DNA of 39,088 nt from a virus (Duplodnaviria; Caudoviricetes): positions 1 to 39,088 of IMG/VR virus record IMGVR_UViG_3300030376_002948; one strand, given 5' to 3'. Made by a program: the position numbers and the translations under genes. This document shows positions 352 through 31,573 of the stretch, in pieces; the first letter of the stretch is position 1, and each line of letters opens with the position of its first letter. A model generated the notes under the pieces. That model did not search any database, had not been told where the DNA came from, and saw only the letters and a program-made list of their open reading frames with translations.

Positions 352-3300
352 GACCTCATACAAAGATTACTTGAACAGCAGGTAGCCGTTAACACAAAGC
401 AGGACAAACAGACTGTAGACCCAGAAGTACAAAAGCTTACTGACTATTTAAATGAAATAGGTGCGCCACGAGCTGGTGGATGGCTTGAGACTGTTAGGCA
501 ATATGTTCAGAAGGCTGTAGAAGGATTTGGAGTTGCGGTAACACAAGAAGATATACTTGCCACAATTGCACGACTTCAAGAAATAGGAATGTTAAGTCAG
601 GAAACAGCTGACGACCTTGCTCTTAATCGTGGTGGTCAAATTACCATTCCTAAATTGATGCAGTTGTTAACTGACGCAACACTTGCTTCTGTAAGAGAAC
701 GTGCAGGTATAAAGCCCGACCCTGAAGCTCAGGCAGATGCTAATGCGGCAGCGCAAAATGCTCAGTCACGACGAGACGCTAGAATACAACAAGGTATAGA
801 AGACAATCGCCGGGTTCTTGATGCATCCAAAACAGCCCTCGAAGCCAACAACAAAATACCAAAAGCAGATAAGGCTAAACTAAGTGTTGCTCTAGAAAAC
901 ATGAGGCTCGACCTTGGGCGTAACCCGGTTGAAGCCATACAGAATATTGTTAAAGACTTACGCAAAAGCGGTGTCGATGAAGCCTCTATTCAGGCTTACA
1001 TTCTGCCTTATGCAACTCGGGTCGCACAGCAACAACAACAGAATGATGTCGTTTTTTCTCAAGTAGACCCTATACCAGAAGTTGAGACTGCCCCTGCAAG
1101 TAATCCTAATCGTATATCCACTAGTCGCACTGAGGCGGCTAGAGACCCAATCGATAGTTTTAATGAAGAACGTCAGATTAGTGTTTCATTGTTTGAAGAT
1201 AACCCGACAGTATTTGACAAAATCTACAACAAGGTTCGTTCGACTGTTATCGGCATGGGTAAACTGGCTAAAGATAATAAACAATTCGCTATAGACTACA
1301 AAAACCATATCAAAGACAACCTTAGGTTTTTATATGAGCAGACTTTGCCGGAGTATCGTGAACGTGCAAAGCAGTGGTATGTTGGCGCAAACAAATTAGC
1401 TCAAGGTTTGGCAGACCAGTATAATTTAAAGTTAGAACAATCTGCGGCGGTTCTTGCCGCACTGTCACCTCAGCTTGATTGGTTCTTAAATTATGAGCTT
1501 GGTCGTCGAGTGATAGACATTCACGAAACCCAGCAAGATACAGTTTTTGAGGGTGCTGTTTGGGATGCCGCCCAAGACTATGTCAACGACATGAAAGACA
1601 AAACAAAAAGAAACAAAATAGATAAAGCTAACGCTCAAGATATTATTGATAGCGGTAAAGGTAAGCCACTTAGAGATTTAAACGCTATGGAGGCGGCATA
1701 TTTCATCCGTTTTTATAACGAAGTTAATCAAAATCAAGTCATAAACATCATTACACCTGAAGGCGATGTTGGTGATTTACAAATGAATGACGATGGAGTT
1801 ACACCAACTACAGGTGGTTGGAATAGTGGCTTCGCAATGATAGCTAAAGGCGTAAAGGTTTTAAGAGACCCATCACGTCTTACTATACATTATAGCCTCG
1901 GTGAGAAACACAAGGTCAGAAGTTTCTATAATAATATCTTAGACCCTAACTCTCTCATGGGTGATGTAACCATTGATACTCACGCAGTTGCGGCGGCATT
2001 GTTAAGACCTCTATCGGGCAACTCCTTACCAGTAGCACATAACTTTAAAGACGCAGGGACGAGTGCAGTACTTGGCGTTTTCGGTTCTTATGCCGTTTAT
2101 GCTGATGCCTACAGAGAGTTAGCTGATGAGCTTGGTATACTACCAAGAGAATTACAAAGCATAACATGGGAAGCGGCTCGTGGTTTGTTTCCTCAAAAGA
2201 AAAAACAAGACAAGACTTATCGTGACAACTTAGAGCAGATATGGCAAGATGTTGATAGCGGTAAAATTACAGCAGATGAAGCACGGAGTATAATTTATGA
2301 CACAGCCGGGGGCATTGACAGAGCAGACTGGGAAGACACCAAAACTCAGCCGGGAAATGCAGAGCGACCCAGTGATATCGTATCTAGTAGAGTACAACAA
2401 ACCCCTGACCCAACAGAATTACCTCTCACTAGGGTATCCGGGGATGGAGATGTCAGCGGAGTTGATGTCGAGCCTTCCGGCGTTCTTCGACGACCTACCG
2501 AAGAAGTAAACCAACAGCTGGAGTTAGACTTTGACGTCAATAGTATTCCCACCCCAACCACCACAGATGGTCAAGCGGCAAGAGAAATCAAAGAAAACCT
2601 TGAGGAAGCCGAAGCCCTCATCGAAATTGGTAAACCCGGAAGCATCTACGAAGACGGTATCAAAACCTACGACCAATTAAATGCATTACTAACAGCACTT
2701 AACCTTGCTAGTAACTTTCACGTCGTTGATAGTCGTGAAGACTTTGATAAGCTTGTCGATGCTTACGGTTCAAAGATTAATGAAGAAACCAGAGAAGGTA
2801 CAATGGGTGTTACCATTCAAAACCAAACAGATGGTTCAAAAGCTATTATAGTTATGAGACAGGGTCGTGGTGGCGATAGAATTCAAGATAGAGAATTTTT
2901 AACTATTCTTCATGAGATAGCTCACGCTATAGAATTCCAAAACAGATACCAAGGCAATGACCCACAAATCGGTTTTAGTAAACAGCCTGTTCTTAGACCG
3001 TATAACACAAGGTCGTTTGAAGGAAGTGCTACGCCGAACCAAAAATTAGCCTTTCACCCAATGTATGATGTAAGTCTAAGAGGACTACTAAATTCATATC
3101 TAAATTCTTTAGTACCTAGAGAAGTGAGTGTAAGTAGTAAGATATTAGAAACAGATACAGAAGCATTTAACAACGACCCAATAGTTAAAGAAATAAGACA
3201 AATACAAGCTGATGAAAACATAACTGTACCTGAGGGACAAAGCGGTAGAATTCGTCCGTTTCTTTCTGACAAAGATTACGGACAAGTTTACGATACAGCT

Positions 3301-4420: not shown

Positions 4421-5948
4421 CTTTAGCTTCTACTCTAAAAGCGCACTTAAAATAAGAACAAAGTCGGGTGAGATAGCACCTCTTGCACTGAACGCCGCTC
4501 AGAAAATACTAGACGATGCGGTGCAAAAACAACTGCATACTGAAAAGAAGGTTCGAGTAATAATTCTAAAAGCTCGACAGCAGGGTCTGTCTACATATGT
4601 AGGCGGCTACCTGTACTTTTCTGTAAGCCAACAACCAGCTCGTAAGGCTATGGTTATTACTCACCACGCTGATAGTACTCGTGCGCTATTTGATATGACC
4701 AAAAGGTTTCACGAGCATTGCCCTGAAATACTAAAACCACACACCAAGTACTCATCTCGTCGAGAGATTACGTTTGACGTTTTGGATAGTGCCTATGTGG
4801 TTAGTACAGCTGGTGGCGACAGCATTGGTCGAGGCGAGACGCTTACACATGTCCACGCATCCGAGTTAGCGTTCTGGTCTAAAACTCAAGCCGAAGAAAA
4901 CTGGAATGGTCTCATTCAGGCAGTACCTAATGAACCCGGTACAGCGGTGTTTGTCGAAAGCACTGCTAATGGGGTGAACGGTCAGTTTTATGATTTGTGG
5001 AAGGGAGCTGTTGAAGGCACTAACGGATATGTTCCGGTCTTCATACCTTGGTTTACTGACCCTTCATACATTGAGGATGTACCCGACAACTTCGAGAGGT
5101 CACCCGAAGAAGAAGAGATATCAGAAAAGTATGACCTGAGTGATGCACAGCTGATGTTTCGTCGTCGTAAGATTGCTCAAAACGGAGCTGACTTATTTAA
5201 GCAGGAGTATCCGGCAGAGCCTGAGGAAGCATTCTTAACAACTGGTCGCCCGGTGTTTAACCCGGAGCAACTCACGGAGTGCCTTGGTGAAGTTCGTGAT
5301 ATGGATGAACGTCTAGCACTTGAAGGCGAGGACTGGGTAAACCATTCGAGAGGTGAGTTAACAACTTACATAGGTCACAGACCCGGCGAAAATTATGTAA
5401 TCGGAGCTGACGTTGCTATGGGTGTACGAGGTGGCGACTTTTCAGTTGCTCAGGTCTTAGACAGCAACAAGCGACAGGTCGCAACTTGGCGAGGTCAGGT
5501 ACATCCTGATTACTTTGCTGAGATTTTGTATGCCCTGGGTGAGTTTTATAATGATGCTTTTATCTGCGTCGAAAACAATGGTCACGGTATCTTAACGTGT
5601 ACACGGCTCGGCAAAGATATGGCTTACCCAAACTTTTACACCGAAGTCCAACACGACAAGCTTACTGACCGTGAGACTGTCAAGCTGGGTTTCTCAACAA
5701 CAGCAAAAACCAAACCAATGATTATTGACCAGCTCAGAGCATCAATGCGTGAAGAAGAGCTGGAGTTAAATGACAAAGTCACCATTCGTGAAATGCTTAC
5801 TTACATCGTTACTGAAAGCGGAGCGATGCAAGCTGACGGAGGGTGCTTTGATGATTGCGTCATGTCATTAGCCCTAGCGAATTACGTTCACGATGGTGCA
5901 TGGACACCAATTGAAAGCGGAGACGAATTTTATGTGGAAGTATTATAA
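4377..5948 (+). CDS. terL: Terminase large subunit
   Basis: Walker A-like LKARQQGLST, Walker B VHASE, coupling motif ESTANG, RNase H-like nuclease IGADVA...DDCVMS. Confidence 0.95.
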   Translation: MDKKLRQVRKKLLTDFSFYSKSALKIRTKSGEIAPLALNAAQKILDDAVQKQLHTEKKVRVIILKARQQGLSTYVGGYLYFSVSQQPARKAMVITHHADSTRALFDMTKRFHEHCPEILKPHTKYSSRREITFDVLDSAYVVSTAGGDSIGRGETLTHVHASELAFWSKTQAEENWNGLIQAVPNEPGTAVFVESTANGVNGQFYDLWKGAVEGTNGYVPVFIPWFTDPSYIEDVPDNFERSPEEEEISEKYDLSDAQLMFRRRKIAQNGADLFKQEYPAEPEEAFLTTGRPVFNPEQLTECLGEVRDMDERLALEGEDWVNHSRGELTTYIGHRPGENYVIGADVAMGVRGGDFSVAQVLDSNKRQVATWRGQVHPDYFAEILYALGEFYNDAFICVENNGHGILTCTRLGKDMAYPNFYTEVQHDKLTDRETVKLGFSTTAKTKPMIIDQLRASMREEELELNDKVTIREMLTYIVTESGAMQADGGCFDDCVMSLALANYVHDGAWTPIESGDEFYVEVL

Positions 5949-9310: not shown

Positions 9311-10706
9311 ATGACAACTTATACTACATATGACCAAGTTGGATTGGCTGAAGATGTAAGTGATATTATCACTGACATTGGTAATGGTGTCCTTGTCGGG
9401 TAACCGACATGACAAACTGTGTGAATTCAGGGAACATCTCTAGCAGACAATCCTGAGCGAAGCCCCGGTATCTCCGGGGAACGTGCAACGACTATCCCAT
9501 TGGGAGTAGAGCCAAGCGGCTCGAAGCGCACAGCCCCTCATGACGAGGGTGAAGATATAGTCTCGTCCTGTAGGCGACTACAGGCTGGCAAATGATTGCC
9601 GGGCAGAGCCTAGCGAACTCTGTTGAAGAAACGCACACCAACCGACACTCCATTCAGCACTATGATTGGTTCAGAAACCTGTTCCGCTCGTGTGTTTGAA
9701 TTCCTTGAAGATAGCCTTGCCGCCGCCGCAGATAACAAAGCGGTTGAGGGTGCAGACCCAAGCATGGCTACTCTTTCTAACGCAACGTCCAGAACGAACA
9801 ACACCCAAATTCTGACTAAAGCGTTTCAAGTGTCCAAAACTGCTGACGCCGTTAAGACTTACGGCAGGGCAAAAGAAACTGCGTACCAATTAGGTAAAGC
9901 ACTTAAAGAAATTAAGCGTGACCTAGAACGTGCGTACATCGGTATAGACAACGCCGCTGTCACAGGTTCAAGTTCTGTGGCAAGAGAAATGGCAAGCGTC
10001 TCGACCCAAATATCGACAACCGTCGATGCCGGGTCAAATGCCACCGATGCCCTTACCGAAGCCAAACTACTTGAGCTGGGTGAAGACTGTTATGGTAACG
10101 GTTCTGACCCAAGCGTACTCATGATTAAACCGGGCGATGCTCAAATCGTTGCTGGTTTTGCCGCCTCATCAGGTCGCAATCGTGAGTTTGCTCAAACTCG
10201 TGAGCTGGTCAATGTGATTGACCTGTACGTTAACTAAACAAATCGGCATAGCGTACATTAAACCCTGTGAATTCAGGGGAAGCCTAAGTCCTTATGGATA
10301 TGGTAATCCTGAGCCAAGCCTTGCTTATGCAAGGAAGGTGCAACGACTATCCTTTTATGGAGTACACCCCGAGTGGGGTGGAAGCGCAGGGGTCTGCAAT
10401 AGCAGACATGATATAGTCTCATCTCATATCGAAAGTATGAGCGTTTTTTAACGACTTTGGTCTAACGAACCAAGGTAAAGATTTTGTTCGCCGTACGGAG
10501 AGTACAGCATTGTACTCAATCGTCACCAGCTTACGACACACGCATTTTTGATTGACCCAGCCATGTTTAAGGCAGTTGTGTTGCGTCCGTTTACACGCAC
10601 ACTTCTCGCTCAAACAGGTGACAGTGACAAACACTTTATCAGCTACGAAGGTTCAGTGAAACACATGAACTTTTCTGACAGTGGAATGATTACTGGTCTG
10701 TCATAA
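9311..10706 (+). CDS. Major capsid protein (SU10/DUF5309-like), spliced: join(9311..9378,9634..10230,10487..10706), 294 aa
   Basis: Exons of 68+597+220=885 nt give an open frame: MTTYTTYDQVGLAEDVSDIITDI-TPTDTPFSTMIG...LKEIKRDLE...VIDLYV-SPYGEYSIVLNRHQ...LRPF...GDSDK...GMITGLS*. AAGG SD upstream; position after scaffold. Confidence 0.92.
9379..9633 (+). mobile_element. Group I intron 1 (255 nt, no ORF, IA-like with P7.1/P7.2)
   Basis: P1: exon gacaU pairs with Gugtc (U-G at the 5' splice site). P3 ctgtgtg 9417-23/cgcacag 9527-33; P gaattcagggaa; Q aatcctgagc; R gtgcaacgactat; S aagatatagtc; P7 gactat 9490-95/atagtc 9557-62; terminal G 9633. Confidence 0.93.
10231..10486 (+). mobile_element. 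Group I intron 2 (256 nt, no ORF, IA-like with P7.1/P7.2)
   Basis: P1: exon tgtacgU pairs with Gcgtaca. P3 ccctgtg 10263-69/cgcaggg 10385-91; gaattcagggga; aatcctgagc; gtgcaacgactat; P7 gactat 10345-50/atagtc 10413-18; terminal G 10486. Confidence 0.93.
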
Positions 10707-17570: not shown

Positions 17571-17586
17571 TGTGACACAAATCACA
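17571..17586. promoter_or_regulatory. CRP-family box TGTGA-N6-TCACA
   Basis: TGTGA cacaaa TCACA exactly matches the CRP consensus; lies in the attP region. Confidence 0.4.
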
Positions 17587-17615: not shown

Positions 17616-17692
17616 GTAACCGTAGCTCAACTGGATAGAGCGACGGACTTCTAATCCGTAGGTTGCAGGTTCAAGTCCTGCCGGGGTCACCA
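17616..17692 (+). other. attP: tRNA-Arg(TCT)-derived sequence with mismatched acceptor stem
   Basis: D arm gctc/gagc, anticodon stem acgga/tccgt with TCT at 17650-52, T arm gcagg-ttcaagt-cctgc, CCA end. Acceptor 5' GTAACCG vs 3' CGGGGTC has 3 mismatches. Ends 49 nt before the integrase start. Confidence 0.8.
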
Positions 17693-18694: not shown

Positions 18695-18714
18695 TTTTGT
18701 CCACCCCTTGGAGA
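18695..18714 (+). promoter_or_regulatory. Candidate phage RNA polymerase promoter
   Basis: ttttgtccaccccttggaga, 15/20 identical to 31140-31159; both are intergenic and upstream of + strand operons. Confidence 0.5.
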
Positions 18715-18765
18715 AGCAGTGGGTCAAATAATAGCGGAACGCAAAAGGTACATAAGGGGTAGCGA

Positions 18766-27301: not shown

Positions 27302-28928
27302 AGATATCTTTAACTACAAATACAGACACGACGGATGTGAGACTTGGGCAGACTTAGCTGAGACACTTGTTCTCGATGTCTGTAACCAATATCTCCCCAA
27401 GGATGAAATCGACCAGCTGACAAAATATATCAGCGACATGAAGTTTATTCCGGGTGGTCGGTATCTATATTATGCAGGTCGTCCCAACAAATATTATAAC
27501 AACTGTTATCTTTTGAAGGCTGAAGAGGACACTCGTGAAGATTGGGCTAACCTCAGCTGGAAGGCTGAGAGCTGTCTAATGACAGGTGGTGGTATCGGCG
27601 CAGACTATTCAGTTTACAGACCAGCTGGTACAACAATCAGTCGAACTGGTGGTCAGGCTTCAGGGTCTGTGACCAAGATGAACATGATTAATGAGATTGG
27701 TCGCCGGGTCATGCAAGGTGGTAGTCGTCGGAGTGCAATCTACGCATCACTTAACTGGAAGCATGGAGACATCGACGATTTCTTGACCGCCAAGGATTGG
27801 CAGAACATGTCCGTAGGCAAAACAGGTCAAAGCTTGTGGGACATCAAACAGGATGACTTTAACTTTCCTGCGCCCCTCGATATGACAAACATATCTGTGA
27901 ATTACGATACTGAGTGGCTGTTAAATTACTGGAAGACTGGAGACATTGGTGACGTATTCCGTCGTAACGTCGAGCAAGCTCTGAGAACATCTGAGCCGGG
28001 CTTCAGCTTCAACTTCTTCGACAAAGAAAACGAAACACTTCGCAACGCATGTACTGAAGTTACATCCGAGGATGACAGTGATGTCTGTAACCTCGGTAGT
28101 CTAAACATGGGTCGAATTGAAACACTCGAGGAGTTTAAAGATGTTACGGAACTGGCAACTAAGTTTCTTATATGTGGCACACTCTCTGCAAAGCTTCCTT
28201 ATCAAAAGGTCTATGACGTTAGAGAAAAGAATAGACGACTTGGTCTCGGGCTTATGGGCATTCACGAGTGGCTTATCAAAAGAGGTGAGCGTTACGAAGT
28301 TACACCAGAGCTTCATAGATGGCTTCAGGTCTATAAGTCTTGCAGTGATTATACTTCCGTCCGTTATGCTAATGCTCTTGGTGTTTCTGTTCCTGTGGCT
28401 GTTCGGGCTATTGCTCCAACTGGGAGTATTGGTATCTTGGCTGGAACGTCCACAGGTGTCGAGCCAATCTTCGCAGTCGCCTACAAGCGACGATACTTAA
28501 AAAATGGCACTGAGTGGCACTACCAGTATGTCGTGGACAGTGCGGCTCAAGAGCTGATTGATTTGTATGGTGCGTCGCCGGACAAGATTGAAAGCGCACT
28601 TGACCTAGCCAGCGACCCCGAGCGTCGTATAAAGTTTCAGGCTGATGTTCAGGATTATGTTGACCAGTCGATTAGTTCGACAATTAATTTACCTGAGTGG
28701 AATTCACAACTTAATAACGCTGACACGGTTGACGGCTTTGCTCACCTTCTGGTTAAATACGCCCATAGGCTAAGAGGCTTCACTTGTTATGCTGATGGCA
28801 GCAGGGGAGGTCAGCCACTAACTCCGGTGGATTATAACTCAGCGCACAATAAACAAGGCGAAGAGTTTCTGGAAACCGCACACGACATTTGTGATGTGAC
28901 AGGTAAAGGTGGCTCTTGCGGCGTATAA
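27276..28928 (+). CDS. nrdJ: Class II (B12-dependent) ribonucleotide reductase
   Basis: PGGRYL, NNCY, GGSRRSA, NACTE (thiyl Cys), CNLGS, APTGS, terminal CxxxxxxGSC; no beta-subunit gene in the genome. Confidence 0.85.
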   Translation: MTFRNQFSEDIFNYKYRHDGCETWADLAETLVLDVCNQYLPKDEIDQLTKYISDMKFIPGGRYLYYAGRPNKYYNNCYLLKAEEDTREDWANLSWKAESCLMTGGGIGADYSVYRPAGTTISRTGGQASGSVTKMNMINEIGRRVMQGGSRRSAIYASLNWKHGDIDDFLTAKDWQNMSVGKTGQSLWDIKQDDFNFPAPLDMTNISVNYDTEWLLNYWKTGDIGDVFRRNVEQALRTSEPGFSFNFFDKENETLRNACTEVTSEDDSDVCNLGSLNMGRIETLEEFKDVTELATKFLICGTLSAKLPYQKVYDVREKNRRLGLGLMGIHEWLIKRGERYEVTPELHRWLQVYKSCSDYTSVRYANALGVSVPVAVRAIAPTGSIGILAGTSTGVEPIFAVAYKRRYLKNGTEWHYQYVVDSAAQELIDLYGASPDKIESALDLASDPERRIKFQADVQDYVDQSISSTINLPEWNSQLNNADTVDGFAHLLVKYAHRLRGFTCYADGSRGGQPLTPVDYNSAHNKQGEEFLETAHDICDVTGKGGSCGV

Positions 28929-28933
28929 AAGGA

Positions 28934-29005
28934 AAGTGAGGGTGTGTCCCATCCAGTCTCCACTAAAGTAGAGTACTAGGACATTCGCAGGTCACGCCCT
29001 CACTT
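28934..29005. terminator. Long hairpin between convergent operons
   Basis: aagtgagggtgtg 28934-46 / cacgccctcactt 28993-29005 with inner stems. Confidence 0.6.
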
Positions 29006-29097
29006 ACTGAATATATACTTTTGTGACACATTTTTAAAGTGAACAAATCAAGAACCACGTCAAGTATTCACAGTTTATGCGTCAACAAAAATTGACG

Positions 29098-29784
29098 TTA
29101 TATGTCAACACTCTCGAATATATACGAGGGCTTCATTGCAGTGGCGAGTATTGGTGTCGCCCAATCCAGCGGAATATCACGAACCTCAAAGTTCATGCCC
29201 GGATTAAAAAGAGTGAATAATCCATTCGGCTGTTTATAAGGTAACGTCAACACGATGTTAGTTTTCTCTCGATTACAGTCGGCTCTTTCGTAGCCATCTG
29301 CCACCTTGCAATAGCTAAAAGCTTGGTGGGCTTCGTCATGAATGTAGCCTTCTTTGATGGGTCTTACGTCAACCACGTCAACACTCTTTGTCATGAAGCT
29401 TAACATTCCGGTGTACTTCTCATTGCCTTCATGGATGAAAACACCATAATCTTTAGCCTTTTCGTAAGATGCGGTGTAAGCAAACCTTGGTTTGCCTGTC
29501 CATATTTCACGATAGAAAGATGTTCTGAAGGTTTCCTCTTTTGGTTCGTCAACCATCTTAGTAATGCCGATGATAGGCATCGGCTGCGCCGGGAAGAAGA
29601 TGTCCTGCGGTGGACACTTGAGTATCTCAGCGTACTCGAATGCATCATCAAACGTCATGCGTATTGCACCCGAGATATGACGAGACAAGGTCTCAGGCTT
29701 CACGCCCTTCATGTCAGCAATCTGCTTTTTAGACAGACCGGATGCTGCGATGACCTTAGCGAAATTTACTGGCTTCATACCCAT
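29098..29784 (-). CDS. XRE-family HTH regulator (putative lysogeny repressor)
   Basis: LSKKQIADMKGVKPETLSRHISG...AEILKC HTH, followed by a ~160-aa C-terminal domain. Confidence 0.8.
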   Translation of the reverse strand: MGMKPVNFAKVIAASGLSKKQIADMKGVKPETLSRHISGAIRMTFDDAFEYAEILKCPPQDIFFPAQPMPIIGITKMVDEPKEETFRTSFYREIWTGKPRFAYTASYEKAKDYGVFIHEGNEKYTGMLSFMTKSVDVVDVRPIKEGYIHDEAHQAFSYCKVADGYERADCNREKTNIVLTLPYKQPNGLFTLFNPGMNFEVRDIPLDWATPILATAMKPSYIFESVDI

Positions 29785-30176: not shown

Positions 30177-30203
30177 GTTCTTACTCCTCTCTACAGAGGC
30201 GAC

Positions 30204-30746
30204 TTACGCCGCCTCGAATTTGTTTGCTTGTGTGAAAACGTCAGCAAATTCATTCAGCAATTTGACTTGGTTTTCTTCGTCAGCACATATGAACGCTCTA
30301 GTAAGATGCTCTGCAAACTCGCCGTGGACACCACGCAAAAGCTGTTGAGTAGATATTGCATTCGGGCGCAAGGCATCTAGTCTGGCTTGCTCCAACCTTG
30401 CCTCTTTACGCTGATTTCTATTTTCATTATCAAGATGCATTTGTGCTAGCTTAAAATCACTTGGCTCAAAGCCAACAGCCTGTATAGGTATGTTCAATTC
30501 TAGTAACAATCGAACTGAAACCCAAACAAACGCACCAGTTTCATTTGGCTTGAACTCGAACATGTCTCTGCCGAACTCTGCCATTAAAGTATCTAGCTTT
30601 TGCTCAAACTTTTTTTGGCTAGTGCCTTTTGGTTTTACACAATCAAAAAATACAGTGTCTATGACTTGGTCGCCAAGCAAGTCGCTTTCGCAACTGTTGT
30701 TTAATAGTTTTAATAAATCGTTACTCATAATGTCTCTCTTTCTCAT
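30204..30746 (-). CDS. Hypothetical early protein (start may be 30728)
   Basis: 180-aa ORF in the minus-strand operon; C-terminal FAEHLTRAFICADEENQVKLLNEF segment. Confidence 0.75.
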   Translation of the reverse strand: MRKRDIMSNDLLKLLNNSCESDLLGDQVIDTVFFDCVKPKGTSQKKFEQKLDTLMAEFGRDMFEFKPNETGAFVWVSVRLLLELNIPIQAVGFEPSDFKLAQMHLDNENRNQRKEARLEQARLDALRPNAISTQQLLRGVHGEFAEHLTRAFICADEENQVKLLNEFADVFTQANKFEAA

Positions 30747-30753
30747 TAAATTC

Positions 30754-30816
30754 TGACCTGTCTCGTCAGCAATGCGAGGTCACTCACACTGGACACCCTC
30801 TCGGGTGTTTCGACTA
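30754..30816 (-). ncRNA. Type II hammerhead ribozyme; predicted cleavage between 30792 and 30791
   Basis: Minus strand reads GUC-GAAA-CACCC(GAGA)GGGUG-UC^CAGUGUGAG(UGAC)CUCGCAUUG-CUGACGA-GAC-AGGUCA: intact core, stems I-III, and a loop I/3' tail pseudoknot. Confidence 0.92.
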
Positions 30817-31044
30817 ATTTGTTGTGGTGTGTTGGTTTTCTGCGACGAATTCTGAAAGAGTTTGTATATCCTCATTCAAACACCCACAGATGTCTTTTAT
30901 TTGCTCGATGGTATCTTCATTGGGTGAAGCCTGAAAGTCACCCATTCTGTTCTTTAGAATGTCCCAAAAGCTATTCACAGTGGATACTAGTTCTTCGAAC
31001 TCTTCGTCAAATTCACGTTTCTTTTGTAGGTCTGTTTTAATCAT
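30814..31044 (-). CDS. Hypothetical early protein, first gene of the operon
   Basis: AAGGAG SD; acidic helical 76 aa; its TAG stop overlaps the 5' end of the ribozyme. Confidence 0.75.
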   Translation of the reverse strand: MIKTDLQKKREFDEEFEELVSTVNSFWDILKNRMGDFQASPNEDTIEQIKDICGCLNEDIQTLSEFVAENQHTTTN

Positions 31045-31074: not shown

Positions 31075-31105
31075 ATTATATAATACACTAGACGTAATAC
31101 GTCAA
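31075..31105 (-). promoter_or_regulatory. Sigma70-type early promoter overlapped by a 17-bp palindrome
   Basis: Minus strand TTGACG-17 nt-TATATAAT (TATAAT itself at 19 nt); palindrome TAGACGTAATACGTCAA at 31089-31105. Confidence 0.65.
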
Positions 31106-31139
31106 GTACCAATACACAATAAATCAATAATACTTCTAC

Positions 31140-31159
31140 TTTTGTCTACCCTTAGGGGG
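31140..31159 (+). promoter_or_regulatory. Candidate phage RNAP late promoter
   Basis: ttttgtctacccttaggggg resembles 18695-18714, ends in a G-run as T7-type starts do, and heads the late operon. Confidence 0.5.
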
Positions 31160-31573
31160 ATAACGCCTGTAATCACTATAGATTAATCAATTAGTTATGA
31201 TGTGTCACACACAAGCATATCGTGGAATAGCCATAGAAGCCTCTACAGCGTATCTGTCGTCAACTGGCTTGCATAGCTAAAGACAGCCAGGGATGAACTG
31301 TGGCGGTCTGTGGTGGGCTTTGGTGGTGCTTTGGTGGTATTTTTTATTTAAAATAGAAGCCCTCGAGCCAATAAAATTCAGAAAACACCAGCTGGTCGTT
31401 TAAATGTTCACGGATAATCTATCCGGTCACTTACGAACCCAATAAATACAACACATTAACATCCATAGACCAAAAACAGACCCCGGGTGGGTCTAAATAA
31501 CATTCGATTTCAAAAACGAGGCTTTGTTGGCTTGTTGTTGTTGTTGTCCGGCATCGTTAATGAGAGGTCTCCC

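Follow-up and report, generated by a model that had tools for sequence, protein, structure and literature searches.

A type II hammerhead motif with an intact core between two accessory genes of an uncultured T7-like phage

Results

The operon around the hammerhead

The window, i.e., the whole stretch of 39,088 nucleotides analysed here, belongs to a phage in which the gene for a T7-like RNA polymerase follows a tRNA and an integrase; its replication module is also T7-like, and its capsid module is of the SU10 type. A short operon on the minus strand lies between the replication and structural modules, and consists of gene 1, a hammerhead, gene 2, a GC-rich hairpin, gene 3 and a gene with a helix-turn-helix (HTH) motif. 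The features are listed below in minus-strand order. L134 is a related contig (the same contig as L135, L276, L325 and L344), and RBS denotes the ribosome-binding site.

31078-31106, minus strand: predicted host-type promoter, CTTGAC-N17-TTATAT (sequence; kept in relatives)
31105-31089, minus strand: operator-like palindrome TTGACGT-N3-ACGTCTA over the promoter -35 box (conserved in relatives)
30814-31044, minus strand: gene 1, 76 aa, acidic (17 D/E, 7 K/R), no family; the UAG stop shares a base with stem II, and an unrelated 109-aa gene takes its place in L134
30740-30826, minus strand: 87-nt island identical in L134, comprising the last gene-1 codons, the hammerhead and the start of the RBS stretch; the genes around it are non-homologous
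30754-30814, minus strand: type II hammerhead ribozyme with its pseudoknot tail, cut predicted at 30792/30791 (Rfam RF02276, sequence, covariation)
G30814-U-C30812 with G30762-A-C30760, minus strand: stem II (direct reading)
30811-30808, minus strand: G12-A13-A14-A15.1, GAAA (direct reading)
30808-30793, minus strand: stem III, A30808-U30793 plus CACCC 30807-30803 with GGGUG 30798-30794, loop GAGA 30802-30799 (direct reading)
30794-30792, minus strand: cleavage triplet GUC, C17 = 30792 (direct reading)
30770-30791, minus strand: region of stem I, in which 30791-30785 and 30776-30770 form 7 bp around a loop of 8 nt; a 9-bp hairpin is possible instead and vies with the pseudoknot (sequence, fold, covariation)
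30769-30763, minus strand: core CUGACGA (direct reading)
30754-30759, minus strand: 3' tail AGGUCA, complementary to loop I UGACCU at 30782-30777 (sequence, covariation)
30204-30728, minus strand: gene 2, 174 aa (180 aa from the ATG at 30746), no family
30196-30215, minus strand: GC-rich hairpin whose GUAA loop contains the stop codon of gene 2; a second junction element, seen twice behind other genes in L134
29784-30176, minus strand: gene 3, 130 aa, acidic, no family
29098-29784, minus strand: CI-like repressor gene, 228 aa, HTH and beta-rich C-terminal domain, last operon gene (Pfam HTH_3, predicted fold)
29092-29108, no strand assigned: second operator-like palindrome, at the repressor stop codon (pattern search, relatives)

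Genes 1, 2 and 3 matched no Pfam or PHROG family. In the Atlas search, gene 1 had helical look-alikes below the threshold and nothing better, and gene 2 had no usable match. Of the two possible starts of gene 2, 30728 is more probable than 30746. Homologs of gene 2 are found in the unrelated phages L001 (72%) and L002 (51%), both without a hammerhead, and therefore any benefit of the ribozyme should be modest. The GC-rich hairpin at the end of gene 2 is a second, non-catalytic junction element. Such hairpins, with the stop codon in the loop, end several unrelated accessory genes, with an RBS next, also at 4512 and 4772 in L134 and at about 3050 in L002. A terminator scan between the cut and the repressor gene gave one weak minus-strand match inside gene 2 (30475-30461), which is unconvincing.

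The last gene of the operon looks like a CI-like repressor gene, for which "repressor-like" is a fair description. The top Foldseek matches of the protein model (pLDDT 88) were a lambda/186 hybrid, lambda CI and 186 CI, with E values of 1e-5 to 3e-4 and TM-scores of 0.31-0.35, and a profile search of solved structures with the sequence gave no match. The downstream repressor proposed in an initial annotation of this DNA is consistent with the HTH_3 match, the CI-like predicted fold and the operator-like palindrome at both ends of the gene. Between the hammerhead cut and the repressor start downstream of it there are two genes and the hairpin, a distance of about 1 kb.

The predicted promoter at 31078-31106 was not listed by a consensus promoter scan. 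It was called because it is conserved in relatives and fits the alphaproteobacterial promoter consensus. Scanning with the promoter pattern gave three matches, two of which are unrelated chance matches and the third is the L134 contig. The operon would be "early" by virtue of this predicted host-type promoter, the sole ground for the term. The palindrome TTGACGT-N3-ACGTCAA is present in the window in two copies at one mismatch, against 0.025 expected, and the operator-like pair around the repressor gene suggests autoregulation of the whole operon. No copy was found before the integrase or RNA polymerase gene, even at three mismatches.

Identification and anatomy of the hammerhead

The locus carries a genuine, intact type II hammerhead motif, which is a new member of RF02276. 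The Rfam model Hammerhead_II (RF02276) matched positions 30752-30815 on the minus strand over its full length (1-66 of 66) with 43.3 bits, as compared with the gathering score of 37, and an E value of 9.3e-6, while the same search gave a match in none of 14 control genomes. An independent hammerhead descriptor detected one site in the 39,088-nt window and none in 40 shuffles. The fold z-score of the 86-nt hammerhead region was -3.61, and none of 200 shuffles folded equally well. All core nucleotides are consensus, with CUGANGA, GAAA and an NUH triplet present. Stems I and III each end in a loop and stem II is open, as in the type II layout. Six Watson-Crick pairs are possible between loop I and the 3' tail (the threshold was at least 4 bp) in the register of the family, and the pseudoknot is predicted to form.

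The initial annotation had read the class, stem II, GAAA, stem III, the GUC triplet and the CUGACGA core in the same way, and its cut site at 30792/30791 is correct as a prediction, C17 being 30792. It had also placed the ribozyme across the whole gap between genes 1 and 2. The overlap with gene 1 holds, in that the UAG stop (30816-30814) has its G in common with stem II, but the ribozyme occupies only 30814-30754, and a purine-rich, RBS-like stretch comes next before gene 2. Rfam and our own descriptor agree on one hammerhead in this phage genome, so that no gene is flanked by two or more copies as in a tandem array. Two group I introns were also detected by Rfam (81.5 and 79.1 bits; cut-off, 50), and the three ribozymes counted earlier in this genome were thus recovered. 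No further self-cleaving class was listed by Rfam in the genome (E <= 1) or in the relatives checked.

Stem I and the pseudoknot

A 9-bp stem I had been described together with the pseudoknot. The complementarity of UGACCU and AGGUCA was found as described, but not the length of the stem. Pairs 8 and 9 of the 9-bp stem (A30784-U30777 and G30783-C30778) occupy two of the six pseudoknot bases, and the 9-bp stem I and the 6-bp pseudoknot cannot coexist because C30778 and U30777 are needed by both. Covariation favours 7 bp. It was counted in 38 distinct members of the family whose stem-I region is likewise 22 nt long. Among these, pairs 1-6 of stem I form in 37-38 members, and pairs 7, 8 and 9 in 11, 18 and one, respectively. 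Pseudoknot columns 2-6 form in 32-38 of the 38, with compensatory G-C, C-G and A-U swaps, and the first column in 20. The search pattern had left the tail unfixed. The count was made without gaps, and a MAFFT alignment of 24 hammerheads was set aside because of misaligned loops. From this covariation, the catalytic form is likely to consist of a 7-bp stem I, an 8-nt loop and the pseudoknot, and the 9-bp stem I hairpin may be a resting or product form.

Both the minimum-energy and the centroid folds favour the 9-bp hairpin together with a CUGAC/GUCAG hairpin (GUCAG, 30757-30753) that buries the core; the minimum-energy fold of the 62-nt stretch has -26.1 kcal/mol. The folding program cannot score pseudoknots and ignores the stabilisation of the core. 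Because the core is buried in the minimum-energy fold, this copy of the hammerhead may be slow. Complementarity of the CUGAC/GUCAG type is present in 12 of 241 family members.

The hammerhead subfamily in viral DNA

For this hammerhead subfamily, the number of viral stretches that fit one narrow pattern is estimated at 1800 (5 of 64 parts scanned, with 130 loci returned). The distinct pattern matches numbered 146, of which 126 had clean stems and 121 also had enough flank. Of the 121 members, 53 could form a pseudoknot of 5 bp or more, as compared with a null mean of 7.3 and a maximum of 15 in 500 permutations. The upstream stop ends within -3 to 0 of stem II in 70 members, and the most frequent offset is 0 (31/121), the same as in the window. 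By the rule used, 11 members have no upstream ORF, and in four the upstream ORF that was chosen extends into the ribozyme or past it. A start codon with an RBS motif follows at a median distance of 25 nt and was found in 103 of the 121. Stop-codon overlap with a following RBS is therefore the norm for this hammerhead subfamily. The copy in the window is placed in this typical way, and its RBS and start codon come about 30 nt after it.

The genes directly behind 144 such hammerheads were taken from 160 pattern-match loci with full flanks and form a heterogeneous set. A PHROG match (E <= 1e-5) was obtained for 35, including 10 with a named function, i.e., SSB, antirepressor, RecE-like, RusA, anti-restriction, GroES, ATPase and terminase small subunit. 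None of the 144 matched a repressor family, which is a weak negative as 109 of them have no PHROG match at all. In a scan of the genome collection, 17 stretches carry the hammerhead pattern (pattern match only). Arrays of 4-6 type II hammerheads that punctuate series of small genes, including an anti-restriction gene, were seen in L060-L061, L216, L218, L231 and L260.

Accessibility of the RBS was 0.56 with the native and 0.55 with a swapped upstream sequence (p = 0.07, 73 members), and it was only slightly higher after cleavage (0.61 versus 0.56). A switch that releases the RBS upon cleavage, to which one fold had pointed, was rejected on these values and because pairing of the RBS was seen only with 60 nt of upstream context and not with 30 or 100, and was absent in L134. 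A circular RNA or an excised cassette was ruled out by the presence of a single ribozyme.

The locus in related phages

L134 has the same promoter and a repressor that is 88% identical, and both of its ribozyme-flanking genes are unrelated to genes 1 and 2 (no blastp match at E <= 1e-3). The longest exact runs between the window and L134 across 12 kb at 88-89% identity are 122, 100, 87 and 81 nt. Since the 87-nt island is only the third of these, its identity alone is no proof of selection or recent exchange, and exceptional identity as proof of recent transfer was dropped. In L133 (the same contig as L136 and L343) and in L322, the promoter and repressor are kept, a gene 3 homolog (70%) is the first operon gene, the hammerhead is absent (in L322 as judged by blastn and by eye) and the genes abut or overlap. 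The initial annotation had suggested that the hammerhead could replace processing by RNase III. In the close relatives that lack the hammerhead, these abutting or overlapping genes leave no room for a processing hairpin, so that no swap between a hammerhead and an RNase III site is seen and the suggestion is not supported.

A hammerhead was detected by Rfam in one of 20 loci with repressor homologs (32-89% identity); these loci are not all independent, L345-L348 being near copies. When only T7-like relatives at this locus are counted, the ribozyme is present in one of six (L344) and absent from L343, L322, L350, L351 and L353. The presence or absence of the hammerhead is independent of the repressor gene. 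The operator pair flanks the repressor gene in 16 of the 20 loci with up to two mismatches, by a search pattern derived partly from the very sequences counted. In 13 of the 16, the upstream operator lies 43-85 nt before the repressor start, which leaves no room for a ribozyme. The arrangement in the relatives indicates that the accessory genes and the ribozyme are insertions between the promoter and the gene of the repressor in a few strains. The promoter-RBS block recurs before yet another gene in L349. No close cultured relative was found, the best matches being 31.5% for the RNA polymerase and 29% for the portal; the repressor had no match, and the DNA matches were only short chance ones.

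Other elements of the phage genome

Two short group I introns without ORFs (Rfam, 9369-9584 and 10201-10441) appear to interrupt the major capsid gene at 9311-10706 (plus strand). Its three pieces are translated separately in the sequence: an N-terminal stub that begins at 9311, a piece with the SU10 capsid match (in 9623-10237) and a C-terminal piece that runs to 10706. No clear precedent for the split capsid gene was found by title in a literature search. In L136, a weak group I intron-like match at 1635-1784 (plus strand; 17 bits, E 4.8) has the GAUAUAGUC motif intact and may be due to chance.

Behind the 3' operator of the repressor, the stretch 28925-29070 (minus strand) contains a TTGAC(G/A)-type box with a LexA-type GT(T/A)C-N7-GTTC repeat, a long irregular hairpin and a U-rich tract. 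The TTGAC(G/A)/LexA-type box recurs at an offset of +723 to +741 in all five T7-like relatives with that flank (L343, L344, L350, L351 and L353; repressor identity, 43-89%). This element, a candidate SOS-controlled small RNA or terminator, had no Rfam match and no antisense target in the genome, and it may bear on lysogeny control more than the hammerhead does. In L345 and L349, a small Cro-like ORF, read by eye, appears in the slot behind the repressor.

The sequence TGTGACAC occurs three times, always between genes (17571-17586, 29022-29029 and 31202-31209), and the copy before the tRNA and integrase reads TGTGA-N6-TCACA, a CRP-type site. The tRNA itself (17616-17689, plus strand) lies directly before the integrase. 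Its anticodon is UCU (Arg) by eye, acceptor-stem positions are unpaired in the Rfam alignment, and it is possibly an attP-associated copy. No relatives of the integrase were found by the search. The motif TTTGTC(C/T)ACCC at 18696-18706 and 31141-31151 (plus strand), before the RNA polymerase gene and the structural module, is conserved in relatives and is a candidate promoter for the phage RNA polymerase, which would stand back to back with the leftward host-type promoter. A LexA-type box, GAAC-N7-GTAC, lies at 18737-18751 directly before the RNA polymerase start and hints that induction may be controlled elsewhere than in the hammerhead operon. Boxes of this type occur genome-wide at the level of chance (3 versus 3.05 expected). 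The box resembles the alphaproteobacterial LexA motif GTTC-N7-GTTC, as given in the accessible part of PMC8565304.

Discussion

The best reading of the locus is that of a portable gene-junction element, which likely processes the polycistronic mRNA of accessory genes as Perreault et al. proposed in 2011. In this phage the hammerhead would sit at a swappable junction of a variable accessory operon and, as we hold with moderate confidence, would be a constitutive mRNA cutter that places gene 1 and the downstream genes on separate RNAs. With the CI-like protein repressing its own operon, host RNA polymerase would start at about 31070 and transcribe leftward. While being made, the RNA would fold into stem II, a stem I of 7 bp and a pseudoknot of 6 bp, and it would then be cut at 30792/30791. 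The 5' piece, carrying gene 1, would end in the stem III hairpin with a 2',3'-cyclic phosphate, and the 3' piece would start with a fully paired 5'-OH hairpin just before the gene-2 RBS, about 60 nt ahead of the gene-2 start. Whichever gene lands behind the ribozyme would thereby get a standard, context-independent leader and its own decay rate; engineered ribozyme insulators provide the comparison for such a leader. On general grounds, a paired 5'-OH end would be expected to protect the downstream RNA from decay and to insulate its gene. The conserved block probably doubles as a recombination boundary for the exchange of accessory genes. The freed gene 1 and the base-paired 5'-OH end would follow from hammerhead chemistry, for which the cyclic phosphate and 5'-OH ends are established in the class according to the accessible part of a review (PMC6765202).

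It is unlikely that the block of stop, ribozyme and RBS is kept mainly as a homology anchor for gene swapping, with the hammerhead as a hitchhiker whose cleavage matters little. Such a DNA boundary would agree with the identical island between different flanking genes in L134, with the absence of the hammerhead from five of the six T7-like relatives at the same locus, and with the GUAA hairpin, which acts alike, and the promoter-RBS block that stands before another gene in L349. However, the pseudoknot is kept with compensatory changes; it would be superfluous in a pure DNA anchor and is needed for fast cleavage according to the accessible part of PMC3088659. Cleavage could otherwise be gated by translation. 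Stem II, GAAA and a portion of stem III would then lie under any ribosome that terminates at the stop of gene 1, and the RNA would be cut mainly when gene 1 is poorly translated, which would link mRNA processing to translation. The footprint of a ribosome extends about 12-15 nt past the stop codon, and the position of the stop within -3 to 0 of stem II in 70 of the 121 members, with only four upstream ORFs ending inside or beyond the ribozyme, is as gating would predict. On the other hand, short intergenic gaps are general in phages, the fixed G in the search pattern favours UAG at offset 0, and termination is brief relative to the lifetime of an mRNA, and we regard gating as distinctly improbable. 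A wider proposal, in which phage type II hammerheads are junction cassettes of stop, ribozyme and RBS that serve both as recombination boundaries and as translation-gated cutters, and in which such cassettes have here invaded the autoregulated leader of a CI-like repressor, is speculative and has a small chance of being right; strains with and without the ribozyme would then make up a natural experiment on the role of phage hammerheads.

The initial annotation had raised the idea that cleavage tunes the lysis-lysogeny decision; cleavage would then set the level of the CI-like repressor instead of RNase III processing. The repressor is indeed the last cistron behind the cut, on the 3' product, with no convincing terminator between, and the operator pair suggests whole-operon autoregulation, so that an altered stability of the 5' end could reach the repressor mRNA. 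But the two genes, the hairpin and about 1 kb separate the cut from the repressor gene, the hammerhead is absent at 19 of the 20 repressor loci, and among the 144 genes behind such hammerheads there is no match to a repressor family and one to an antirepressor. Furthermore, operators are lacking before the integrase and RNA polymerase genes, and autorepression should even out differences in mRNA stability. A role in the lysis-lysogeny decision is unlikely, given that the hammerhead is missing from most of the related phages that carry this repressor-like gene, and tuning of the repressor level as such has very little probability. That the window copy is practically inactive, trapped in the 9-bp and CUGAC/GUCAG hairpins, is very improbable, although the minimum-energy and centroid folds take this form, and 4 of 18 consensus candidates were inactive and a longer stem I cut the activity of one construct in the accessible part of PMC3088659. 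The core agrees with the consensus at every nucleotide, the pseudoknot keeps the register of the family, L134 has the same sequence, and the folding program is blind to both the pseudoknot and the core stabilisation. The constitutive cutter at a swappable junction, with the catalytic form described above, is thus the reading that we retain.

The value of the locus is modest and comparative, in that near-identical phages with and without the ribozyme, and different genes around an unchanged copy, allow a clean reporter experiment; direct testing is limited in an uncultured phage. According to the accessible part of a 2019 review (PMC6765202), the purpose of phage hammerheads is still undefined. 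A literature search with partial coverage (titles and the starts of abstracts) returned no paper on stop-codon overlap or on hammerheads controlling lysogeny.

The operon has counterparts in several known systems. The T7 early RNase III sites cut a polycistronic host-polymerase transcript at gene junctions by means of a host protein and a long double-stranded stem, leaving 5'-phosphate ends. In contrast to these sites, no long stems were seen in the hammerhead-free relatives of the window phage. Lambda CI and coliphage 186 CI (PDB 3bdn, 2fjr and 7jvt) resemble the window repressor by predicted fold, with an N-terminal HTH and a C-terminal beta domain, and paired palindromic operator-like sites lie around the window gene. 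The window repressor, however, has no sequence match to solved structures and low TM-scores, no autocleavage residues were recognised in it, and no operator stands before the lytic RNA polymerase gene. In the haloviruses HF1 and HF2, the "HHphage" hammerhead also immediately precedes a start codon, within an early phage transcript that is polycistronic, and a mapped 5' end matched the cut site, as described in the accessible part of PMC3088659. It differs in that its core is a variant, its virus is archaeal and a helicase follows it, whereas the window copy has the consensus core and is known from sequence alone.

The closest systems are the type II hammerheads of Perreault et al. (2011), and since this arrangement was already described there, the window locus is ordinary as an object. 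As presented in the accessible part of that paper (PMC3088659), type II hammerheads with a pseudoknot cluster around prophage genes of inconstant identity, they cleaved in vitro and in E. coli, and an mRNA-processing hypothesis was put forward. The window copy is like them in its open stem II, closed stems I and III, consensus core and pseudoknot, and in its intergenic position among small, variable genes of the temperate-phage type. It differs from them, as they appear there, in being a single copy and not a tandem array, so that no gene is released with both ends cut, and in its position in a phage with a T7-like RNA polymerase, between the promoter and the gene of a repressor. In addition, the strain-level comparison made here shows both neighbours swapped around an unchanged ribozyme.
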